From IMG/VR virus record IMGVR_UViG_2529293141_000023: DNA of 19,068 nucleotides. One strand, written 5' to 3'. Positions 15,601-18,600 of the stretch are shown one piece after another. Position numbers: made by a program. Source of the stretch: a virus. Its lineage: Duplodnaviria > Heunggongvirae > Uroviricota > Caudoviricetes. The first letter of the stretch is position 1; each line of letters begins with the position of its first letter.

Positions 15601-18600
15601 AAAAGACGCGGAAGGTTTTAAGCATGAGTCACCTCCTGACGGATACGGGCGACAAAAATAAGATGTGCGTGCGGCAGCTGGGCGCGTGCTTCGTGCTCAG
15701 TGGCAGCGGTAACGGTGAATATTGCAATGCTGTCTGTCAGGCACTGCATAAAGCGCTAGGTGAATTTATTCAGGTTGTGCGAGTCCCGCCCTTGCGGGTG
15801 TGTGATATGATTTCTCATAGCTGCCTCGATACTCTTGCTATCGTTGGTGGTCAGAGGCTGCGAAAGGACGGCAATCCTTTTCAGCCTCGTTTGCATTGAG
15901 TGATAAACACTCAACTGGATTCCAGTATAATCACCAAGTGGAATCCACTTCAAGCGTTTTGTTTTGGTCTTTTTCGTGTATACTGGATTCCAGTAATCAC
16001 AAAGGGAAGCAGAAATGGAAAGAGACCATATCAATAACAAATCACAGAAATTACAGGCTCGCGCCCCGCATGAAGTTGTTGAGGCTATGGAGCAAGTAAA
16101 AGAAACAGGCGAGAGCACTGCGCAATTTATCGTTACAGCCATGCGAGGCGAGATCAAACGCCGCCAGCGCCGCAAGGCCAAAGAATCAGAATAATCACTA
16201 TCAGCGCCGTGGTGTGAGGTACTACGGCGCATTGCTTTACAGGGCAGCAGCATGAACAAAAAGTACCAATCCATTACAGATATTTTTGCCGAACAACGAA
16301 GACAGCTTTTGCACCGCATACTTGAGCGCCAACTGGAACTGAAACGCGCTAAAGAGATATCAGAACCCGAAGAGTTAACGCCTCTTCCCGGAGTGAAAAA
16401 ACACCCACAAAAACGATTTGCCCTTGAAGATTTTGTCGAGAAATACCCACGGCGGTTAAAAGCCACTAAAAACCGACCGCCTGGCTGATAGCCTTGTCCA
16501 CCAGCTACACTCATGGCATAGTTGGTGATGCGCTTGATTTCCTTTATCTCCACTGGCGACCCTTTCGTGGTCGCCTTTGTTTTGCCTGCCATTCCTGCAT
16601 CATGCAAATATTCGCGCCGTACAGAGCCACCAGCGCGATAATTTGATAAAACCTCCTCTAAGTATTGCTTAACGTGTTTCATACGCTCAGCGGCGAAATG
16701 GCTCACGATATGGCGCATGTAATCAAACTGATCGCTATTCAGCAGAGCAAACTTATGTTCACGCTCTCCGTGTTGATTGGTTTTTAATCGCTCCGTTTGA
16801 AACGGAAGGATACCCAGTTCACGCAATCCGGTTTTGTGCTTCTGAATAAGCGAATAAAGGCTTTTGTGCTTTATGCCGATGCGTTCAGCAAACAGGCGGG
16901 AATCAATACGCGACTCTGCTTTGTGGCGAATCAATATATCGTTCTGGCTGATTTCAGGCTGAACGAAGCCCTGCCCCTGTACGGGCACATTCGGACGTTT
17001 CATTGAAAACTCCTGCTATCGAATCAGGTTTAGTGCTGGGGGAGAATATCCCCCTCCCAAAAGATTATTACGCGGCGTTGTTGCGAGAAGCATCAATACG
17101 CTGGTTAATCCATTCGTCGACTTCACTTTCAATAAAAGCCACGGAGCGGGAACCAATTTTTACCGGTTTAGGGAAACGCCCCAGGCTGATCAGGCGATAA
17201 ATCCATGCGCGACCGTAACCAGTACGGCGCATAACCTCAGAAAGACGGATGAATGAATTGTTATTAGCCATTTATCAATCTCCTTAATGTTGACGCGAAA
17301 ATCCCCTCCTGTGGCTTAGCAAGAGTTTTATTTGCGTCAAATTACGAACACGACAAAAACCACAACATGAAAACATGTTGTGGTATTGCATAAGATAAAT
17401 TCAGATTGTTTGGTTGGTGGTTGGTATGCTCCAGCAAGGTAGAGCTATTCCCGCTTTTCGGCGGGGTCACACGATTAGGCGTGACGTCCAGTAGTTTTAA
17501 AGAGCGCCCTTTTTCAGGGCATGGTGGGCAGGCAAGAGAGCAATTGCGCTTTGTCAGCGCTCCGCAGCCTCATTGGTGAATCATTACATGCATTGTAAAG
17601 GTGCATGTATCCCTATTCTTTCCTGCATCAGGAAAGCACCAAAGGCTGTTAAAGAGCATCCAGCTTTTCAGCTGCGTAGAAGACTCCATCTTCGTTGTTA
17701 CAAGGAGCGCCGTCCATACATGATGGGGTAACTGCGTGAAAAACCATCTGTAAGGATATTACCTGTAGCTTTCCGTGTACGTTAGTATACATCTGTATAC
17801 TTGTCCAGTCGTTTTTATGCACATACACCAAACTTGCCGTGCACCACGTTACCGCCCTGTTCCAGTGAGTCCATATAGTCGGCGTACCACTGGAGCATCT
17901 CCCGCCGTCCGTCCAGGTATTGCGCGTGATTGTATGTGCCACGGATCGAGTTTTTATCGACGTGCGCCAGCTGCGTTTCTATCCACGCGGAGTTATAACC
18001 CTGCTCATGCAAAATCGTACTCATGGTATGCCGGAACCCATGACCAGTAACGCGCCCTGCATAGCCAATACGACGAATAAGCACGTTCATAGCCATTTCA
18101 CTCATCGGCTTACTGTGCTGTATTCGACCAGGGAAAATAAACGGATACTGCCCCGTCATGTGTTTTAACTGTTCCAGAATAGCGATCGCCTGTTCTGAAA
18201 GTGGCACGCAATGAGGACGGCGCATTTTCATTCGTTCTTTCGGCACTTCCCACAGACGATTATCAAAATCAATCTCCTGCCACTCTGCCTGCCGTAATTC
18301 ACCTGGGCGAAGTCCTGTAAGAATCAACAATCGCATACCCAGCTTGACGATCTGGCTTCCGGTGTACGTATTAAAAACGCGGAAAAATTCCGGTAGCTCA
18401 TCAACTTTCAGATACGCGTAATGCTCTTTTTTGTGTGGTGCAAATGCGCTTGCCAGATCAGGAGCGGGGTTATATTCAGCGCGTCCGGTAATTATTGCGT
18501 ACCGGAACACTTCGCCACATCGCTGGCGAACCTTACGCAATTTTTCAGTTGCGCCACGGTCATTAAGACGGGATAGAACCGCGAGCAATTCCATCGGCTT

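Follow-up and report, generated by a model that had tools for sequence, protein, structure and literature searches.

In the immI operon of phages P1 and P7, which is arranged as c4 RNA, icd and ant, icd serves as a translated leader for the downstream genes. A leader open reading frame (ORF) has also been described in the satellite phage P4, where eta is coupled to the alpA homologue and holds the CI RNA, and where translation of eta prevents termination so that late-promoter transcripts read through (Forti 1999, J Bacteriol 181:5225, as summarised in the part of PMC10111431 dealing with P4). In Gram-negative phage-inducible chromosomal islands (PICIs), the alpA promoter is helper-induced and AlpA-activated (PMC6092414), and the zone from alpA to the replication genes has been termed the 'Bro zone' (Mageeney et al. 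2023, PMC10111431, in the part concerned with it). Here we analyse such a zone in a viral stretch of 19,068 nucleotides (nt; IMG/VR record IMGVR_UViG_2529293141_000023), hereafter called the window, which is a capsid-encoding satellite of the Gram-negative PICI type. Its alpA gene is followed by a minus-strand ORF of 415 codons, which we consider likely to be the counterpart of P4 eta in this satellite, selection keeping the frame translatable, and not its protein sequence, so that transcripts can pass. An eta/kil-type leader is already known from P4 and has been alluded to for the Bro zones of PICIs; what is new is that the frame crosses an antisense cassette for a probable protein repressor. 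The features on which the argument turns are as follows.

17068..17271, minus strand: alpA, an AlpA/Vis-family regulator (Pfam Phage_AlpA, 73 bits), in the position of P4 vis
17010..17014, minus strand: Shine-Dalgarno AGGAG of the long ORF, read from the sequence, 7 nt ahead of the ATG at 17003
15756..17003, minus strand: long ORF, 415 codons with an ATG start, a likely eta-like read-through frame, shortened
16599..17003, minus strand: Rha-like N-terminal domain, residues 1 to about 135 (homology over about 20-135)
15819..16598, minus strand: stop-free 'corridor' without sign of amino-acid constraint
15824..15827, minus strand: Shine-Dalgarno GAGG of the nested kil/icd-like gene (compare P4 AGGAGGCTGCCATCATG)
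15618..15818, minus strand: ancestral kil/icd-like gene of 66 codons plus stop, nested in the reading frame of the long ORF
15756..15758, minus strand: TAG nonsense codon where relatives have TGG, being codon 416 in the long frame and codon 21 in kil
15618..15749, minus strand: remnant Icd-like ORF, 43 codons, annotated 'Icd-like' in relatives (NF033153, 45.8 bits, profile positions 12-48 only)

Comparison with described systems

In P4, vis is followed by a long ORF (8168..8812) and then by the genes from epsilon to alpha, and the last 65 codons of the long ORF, preceded by AGGAGG, match NF033153 at 73.9 bits. P4 Kil is reportedly 65 amino acids (aa) in length. These last 65 codons correspond to P4 Kil, and the longer ORF in frame with them is eta. 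The window resembles P4 in that its long ORF follows alpA, the homologue of vis, precedes the primase, and is in frame and co-terminal with a Kil of about 65 aa that has its own ribosome-binding site; the common end is seen in the ancestral allele (L001), and in the window it is split by a derived TAG. Both Kil sequences match NF033153, the ribosome-binding site of the window's kil resembles that of P4, and in both elements the long ORF reads through the immunity determinants. The two loci differ in that the window has neither a C4/CI RNA nor an isrK/seqA-like leader, and a convergent protein cassette (ylcI and orf78) sits where P4 has its C4/CI RNA. Furthermore, the window's ORF is about twice as long and carries a Rha-type head, its start does not overlap the alpA stop, and its kil is broken by a nonsense codon.

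Rfam searches of the window, both at gathering thresholds and at E<=10, returned no C4 (RF01695), isrK or other RNA. A C4/CI RNA lies inside the long ORF in P4 and in the sister E. coli elements L002-L004 and L013, and C4 was not found in the window, in L001 or in the ylcI-type loci. Comparison with L004 identified a module swap, in which window positions 15760-16408 (operator-like palindromes, ylcI and the start of orf78) replace the C4-containing module between flanks that are 97-99% identical. With P1/P7 immI the locus shares a small division-inhibitor gene of the Icd family, and sister elements carry the C4 RNA; unlike immI, the window lacks both the C4 RNA and a downstream ant, and its upstream extension runs to hundreds of codons. 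The Bro zone, in the sections of PMC10111431 devoted to it, likewise holds domain-swapping Rha, AntA, Ash and Bro-N genes and may contain immunity RNAs. Whereas those sections treat the zone as protein-coding segments, much of the 'protein' in the window appears to be a sequence-unconstrained open frame antisense to real genes.

The frame is kept open across diverged elements

A preliminary description of the window had pointed to a minus-strand frame of 415 codons (15756..17003) without an in-frame stop, with a good ribosome-binding site, a Rha-like N-terminus and a Ser/Cys/Arg-rich tail overlapping small plus-strand genes and a terminator, all of which we recovered. Ser, Cys and Arg make up 27.8% of the residues past residue 140 against 15.7% in the N-terminal part, with Cys alone at 4.7% in the tail and 0% in the head, and from residue ~140 the tail is antisense to a plus-strand unit of ylcI (16015..16194), orf78 (16252..16488) and the terminator (16555..16584). 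Across 15759..16583 the frame of the long ORF contains no stop, compared with 17 and 15 in the other two minus-strand frames. The open state is far from chance: dinucleotide shuffles of this region had a mean of 11 stops, and 0 of 20,000 were stop-free.

Related loci with an open frame were retrieved without reference to the long ORF, through the 61-aa downstream protein, through ylcI-module DNA and through YlcI proteins. The first route identified IMG/VR loci in which the kil frame is open from stop to stop over 238, 264 and 357 codons, and the second, at about 70% identity, diverged E. coli loci with 365, 689, 443 and 505 codons. YlcI proteins of other genera led to open kil frames in Yersinia (271 codons), Serratia (439), Xenorhabdus (235), Klebsiella (391) and Pantoea (405). 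Among the close relatives compared, L004 and L003 have 573 and 515 codons, respectively. Scans of genome contigs with the 61-aa downstream protein found nothing, and those with the primase gave only six loci, L005 alone being taken into the analysis. In shuffles of 15 loci (excluding L003 and the 357-codon IMG/VR type) the mean number of stops ranged from 9 to 28, with 0 of 2000 stop-free at each locus; for the 217-codon kil frame of P4, 0.2% of shuffles were stop-free. All ten ylcI variants (10/10) have 0 stops in the antisense frame with which ylcI shares its wobble position, and synonymous resampling of ylcI leaves this frame open in only 4-29% of cases per variant. Together, these findings demonstrate that the stop-free state is maintained by selection.

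Database searches further identified 1954 proteins with the same head-plus-extension, of 235-684 aa, many of which are named 'Icd-like protein'. A lost stop or a frameshift, as the preliminary description had suggested, does not agree with this pattern: the extension recurs in these proteins, the frame is open in six genera, and in the window it has, if anything, been shortened by a new stop. Natural variants of the frame consist of in-frame deletions and module swaps, and in a Salmonella remnant (L054/L055) the frame spanning ylcI is disconnected from the kil frame. In-frame starts were found to overlap or abut the stop of the upstream gene, as ATGA in P4, Serratia and Pantoea, ATGtgTAA in antA-type E. 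coli loci, ATGATGcaTAA in Klebsiella and TAAttATG in Yersinia; in P4 the eta ATG overlaps the vis stop (gcaTGAtgatg). At the junction loci other than P4, a separate Bro-N or AntA gene precedes the corridor.

The peptide of the corridor is not conserved

In corridor segments that overlap no gene, substitutions fall without codon periodicity over the three positions (e.g. 7/7/6, 20/24/20 and 15/17/14). Because the frame is open in many loci while its substitutions lack codon periodicity, what is kept across the corridor is the lack of stops and not the peptide. Profile searches with the middle of the long ORF gave no family match, and the AlphaFold2 model of the 461-aa ancestral protein, built on a shallow alignment of 39 close relatives, has a mean predicted local distance difference test (pLDDT) score of 34.7, with 23-39 in the corridor. 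The stretch of ~260 codons that separates the Rha domain from kil does not have the look of a protein domain. Homologues of full length (P0001, P0003, P0004 and a 488-aa ORF in L002) do share a conserved C-terminal region, which the preliminary description had named as an observation against its reading, but their conservation stems from overlapped DNA modules rather than from a protein domain. An analysis of indel lengths on a MAFFT alignment of diverged corridors was dropped, the variable parts not being reliably alignable.

A derived stop codon breaks the frame and kil

The frame does stop at a TAG at 15756, as first described, but comparison with relatives indicates that this is a derived end and not the natural one. 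The 99.9% identical relative L001 has TGG in place of TAG, a single G->A difference at 15757, and its frame continues for 461 codons to 15618, where the long ORF and kil end together. This 461-aa ancestral-type protein (P0001) has 137 member sequences in the databases, and the TAG allele was absent from all complete E. coli genomes checked. The Trp lost to the TAG is nearly invariant among relatives and is predicted to lie in the first beta-strand of the sole moderately confident segment of the 461-aa model (residues 412-455). A single TGG->TAG change thus ends the long frame at 415 codons and appears to knock out kil.

Upstream of an invariant WRF motif, each leader type has its own Shine-Dalgarno sequence and ATG. 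The kil ATG of the window lies at 15818 and gives a 66-aa gene in L001; since kil starts at this ATG of its own, the TAG is codon 21 of the nested kil/icd-like gene. The Icd-like ORF shares the reading frame of the long ORF, no single translated product of the window contains the complete NF033153 domain (positions 1-48), and the 43-aa 'Icd-like protein' is a remnant of kil. The TAG should therefore abolish Kil in the window; with an ATG 6 nt beyond it, polarity is possible but not certain. In an independent nonsense allele, P0002, the long frame is closed at codon 390, six codons ahead of the ATG of kil, which points to repeated breakage of the long frame near kil, with loss of a toxic gene as a plausible driver.

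Other arrangements of the kil module were also observed. In L043 (1326-3395) the kil/leader module is repeated and a 689-codon open frame runs through two Kil-like segments, and L002 (3400-4440) carries three icd copies and two C4 RNAs, with a pseudogene flag from the Prokaryotic Genome Annotation Pipeline (PGAP). The minus-strand RNA is C-rich and G-poor across kil (15600-15800; plus-strand GC skew of about +0.2); that this might be a Rho-loading region was considered, and was set aside as too weakly evidenced to use.

The plus-strand cassette

The corridor is crossed by the following plus-strand and associated features.

15904..15953, both strands: overlapping divergent promoter-like sites (plus 15904-15931, minus 15953-15924), consensus matches only
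15914..15994, unstranded: three operator-like palindromes, ACTGGATTCCAGT at 15914-15926, AAGTGGAATCCACTT at 15936-15950 and ACTGGATTCCAGT at 15982-15994
16015..16194, plus strand: ylcI/ynfO-family gene for a ribbon-helix-helix-like putative repressor
16204..16230, plus strand: 12-bp hairpin just past ylcI, with G-U pairs in plus-strand RNA only
16252..16488, plus strand: orf78, the second cassette gene, with conserved C-terminal motif KRFALEDFVEKYPRRL; annotated by PGAP in L001
16555..16584, plus strand: intrinsic terminator inside the long ORF (residues 143-150), its position kept in diverged loci

The ylcI product scores 72.3 bits with NCBIfam YlcI_YnfO_N (NF041551; cut-off 30) and matches PHROG 949 along its whole length, and it has homologues of 59-64 aa in Serratia, Yersinia, Xenorhabdus, Klebsiella, Pantoea and other Enterobacterales. 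Codon-position counts alone cannot separate the strands over ylcI and orf78 because both frames share their wobble position, and we therefore relied on the order pos2<pos1, BLOSUM scores and synonymous resampling. Substitutions that separate diverged ylcI copies rank as pos2<pos1<pos3 when read in the plus frame, and conservation is higher for the plus-strand protein than for its antisense counterpart. Stem changes in the terminator and the hairpin of relatives yield G-U pairs only in the plus orientation, and in L001, whose genome is 99.9% identical, the genes that PGAP annotates are those of the plus strand and not the long ORF. The plus-strand cassette is genuine; the earlier alternative that these ORFs are unreal and the 415-aa product a real protein does not hold, given the family matches, homologues, operator-like sites and terminator of ylcI.

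In every genus examined, palindromes are located at -101, -79 and -33 relative to the ylcI start, and their sequence co-varies with the N-terminal strand of YlcI: TGGAWTCCA occurs with KSQK[LV]QARAP, GTGTTNAACAC with KSQTVAARVP, and GTGTGNCCCAC with KSQALKARVP. The structure model of YlcI (pLDDT 86) appears to resemble ribbon-helix-helix proteins; Foldseek against the PDB and a PDB sequence search gave nothing informative, and Pfam offered only a weak hint to an Rv0623-like factor. Ribbon-helix-helix repressors with tandem palindromic operators include P22 Arc/Mnt in immI, CopG and omega. YlcI is likewise small and similar in its model, and the window's three palindromes overlap the divergent promoter-like sites, their sequence changing together with the N-terminal strand of YlcI. 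YlcI probably acts as the local repressor of these internal promoters.

Several further observations concern the cassette. The co-variation of operators and YlcI (15904-16194) looks like a repressor-operator switch in place of the C4 immunity RNA. The hairpin at 16204-16230 is 77-95% conserved in many elements and occurs in two copies in C4-type loci (L003, L004). The orf78 family comprises small plus-strand ORFs with a common C-terminal motif, KRFALE(D/A)F(V/L)(E/D)KYPRRL; it gave no Pfam or PHROG match, and members are also found in C4-type elements lacking ylcI (L004 3359-3538 and 3602-3913). In the Salmonella remnant (L054/L055 3501-4328), ylcI adjoins a BrnT/BrnA toxin-antitoxin pair.

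The Rha-like head

Residues 1-140 of the long ORF are 51% identical to an annotated 239-aa Rha regulator of a sister element (E 2e-42). The Pfam Phage_pRha profile (PF09669) scores 24.0 bits, below its gathering cut-off of 29.9 and over profile positions 1-66 of 91, and is likewise borderline for the annotated Rha of L002 (29.6 bits); PHROG Rha-like families match over the first ~85 positions only. An exhaustive HMMER search with residues 1-170 identified ~300 relatives, most of the distant ones among those listed being ~200-270 aa long. Homology to the long ORF almost always stops at residue ~134-135, and a stand-alone 146-aa homologue (P0234) ends just past RREYLP. Because of this common boundary and the end of P0234 at RREYL, only the N-terminal domain (~16599..17003) can be called Rha-like: likeness to the Rha regulators covers residues ~20-135, whereas the usual C-terminal domain of ~100 aa is absent and the typical 200-270-aa architecture is not seen. 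Alignment with Rha homologues, which had been proposed as a means of locating the ancestral stop, did reveal the end of homology, but the natural end of the frame appears to be at 15618.

The first gene after alpA has a conserved N-terminal motif, with the forms PVQGQGFVQPE, TPVQGRGFVRPE, TGRGFTHPE and GSGQTHSE (window 16960-17003, L002 6420-6465, L044 4440-4479 and L048 4900-4959). This motif is kept whichever domain comes next, be it Rha, AntA, Ash or Bro-N, and could represent either a peptide or a nucleic-acid signal common to these genes.

Genomic context of the element

The long ORF lies directly downstream of alpA, with which it shares an operon, and the primase operon follows it on that strand. 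Gene order is alpA - long ORF - kil/icd - small genes - DUF4222 - DUF927 primase, and leftward of the Icd-like ORF the small genes and DUF4222 are followed by the primase (12749..14887, minus strand) and SSB. Two further genes mark the element.

17815..19068, minus strand: integrase
3133..4209, plus strand: lambda-E-type capsid gene

Near-identical elements adjoin tRNA-Gly and actS in E. coli chromosomes; a blastn search of the region against the phage collection returned no match. Further decay was noted in the DUF4222 gene (14919-15179), annotated as frameshifted in a near-identical genome, and the left end of the window (1-633) holds an ORF with an insertion sequence (IS)-type integrase core (rve), or an IS fragment. 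The gap between alpA and the long ORF contains a hairpin or palindrome, GGGGGA-TATTC-TCCCCC (17038-17054), with no T-run after it.

Discussion

By analogy with P4 eta, transcripts from the helper-induced, AlpA-activated promoter would be translated continuously from the alpA region into kil, by ribosomes that load where the upstream gene ends or close to that point. Such translation may shield them from Rho-dependent termination or silencing across the regulatory module, a reading to which the selection for an open frame lends indirect support, so that transcripts of the alpA promoter would reach kil and the primase operon because ribosomes translate the whole stretch. YlcI, in turn, is proposed to bind the three palindromes overlapping the divergent promoter-like sites, and would repress its own promoter as well as the internal one that drives kil and the primase leftward, thereby acting as a protein replacement for the C4/CI RNA. 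More tentatively, it is possible that many enterobacterial satellites keep a stop-free antisense corridor of 250-450 codons for anti-termination or anti-silencing, with ylcI synonymous sites constrained and the peptide drifting, and that YlcI/YnfO is the missing PICI repressor, replacing the C4/CI RNA of P4.

A number of observations weigh against an eta-like role. The ATG of the window's long ORF lies 64 nt past the alpA stop, with a Shine-Dalgarno sequence of its own and no overlap of the P4 kind. Nor is the long frame universal, reaching only 87-100 codons in L005, L018, L029 and L041; the alpA-kil interval, assessable in L018, L029 and L041, could there be tiled by other sense-strand ORFs of sufficient length. 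Broken alleles, such as those of the window and P0002, persist. Translation of the corridor and the part played by Rho are both extrapolated from P4, and the low pLDDT of the corridor is weak evidence only, owing to the shallow alignment.

Among other explanations, a decayed Rha gene, whose normal stop was lost by deletion or frameshift and which runs on by accident through non-coding and antisense sequence, would account for a Rha-like stretch of only ~135 N-terminal residues in a family typically of 200-270 aa, for the junk-like composition of the tail, and for the other decay in the element (the frameshifted DUF4222 gene and the IS fragment). Yet a chance run-on of 275 codons arose in 0 of 20,000 shuffles, elements of six genera share the open frame although their DNA is only ~70% identical, with identities of ~70-76% arguing against recent horizontal copies of one sequence, antisense stops are avoided at ylcI synonymous sites, and the frame is in register with kil and co-terminal with it in relatives; decay is accordingly extremely improbable. 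We regard as hardly credible, too, that the ORF encodes a genuine protein of 415 or 461 aa with a sequence-specific function in its middle, the plus-strand ORFs being spurious. That the databases hold 1954 related long proteins, many called 'Icd-like protein', and that full-length homologues exist speak for such a protein, but ylcI belongs to an independent family of uniform length (59-64 aa) across genera, with a confident fold, its own operator-like sites and terminator, and substitutions that fit plus-strand coding, while the middle of the long ORF has no periodicity, predicted fold or family match.

Selection might instead act on the fusion product itself, an 'Eta' protein in which a Rha head, a freely varying linker and Kil are joined, for example to deliver or regulate the toxic Kil, with no part in antitermination. 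The long frame always ends in, and in frame with, the Kil/Icd domain, the tail is retained behind exchanged heads (Rha, AntA, Ash, Bro-N), and the linker lacks sequence constraint, as a fusion would have it. However, several loci open the frame after a complete, separate Bro or AntA gene and so have no folded head, kil has its own ribosome-binding site everywhere, and nonsense mutations in P4 eta reportedly act via transcription termination (Forti 1999; summarised in the P4 part of PMC10111431), and we judge a selected fusion unlikely. A last possibility is that corridor translation counters the convergent ylcI transcript, by blocking sense-antisense pairing and RNase III cleavage or by stabilising the mRNA, rather than allowing escape from Rho. 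Convergent transcripts are to be expected, because the cassette has its own promoter-like sites and terminator, and ylcI is always spanned in full by the corridor, with an unchanged relative frame, also in L020, where the corridor has no sense gene next to it upstream. Nevertheless, P4 and the C4-type elements have the same long frame without ylcI, which makes this very unlikely as the reason for the corridor.

An eta-like frame would explain a recurrent annotation problem, in which pipelines call now the long frame, now the genes opposite it, and hundreds of entries of 300-680 aa named 'host cell division inhibitor Icd-like protein' appear to be read-through frames of the eta type with a Kil/Icd gene of ~60 aa at their end. 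It would also extend to PICI-type satellites in several genera the translation of a leader ORF as a means of carrying transcription through an immunity region, shown only for P4, and would provide a natural case in which selection maintains translatability but not protein sequence, across an antisense gene. For the element of the window, a non-toxic kil is predicted from the nonsense codon, and induction may suffer a polar defect. Gram-negative PICIs are said to have no known repressor (PMC6092414), and the uncharacterised YlcI/YnfO family gains a testable role as an operator-binding repressor.

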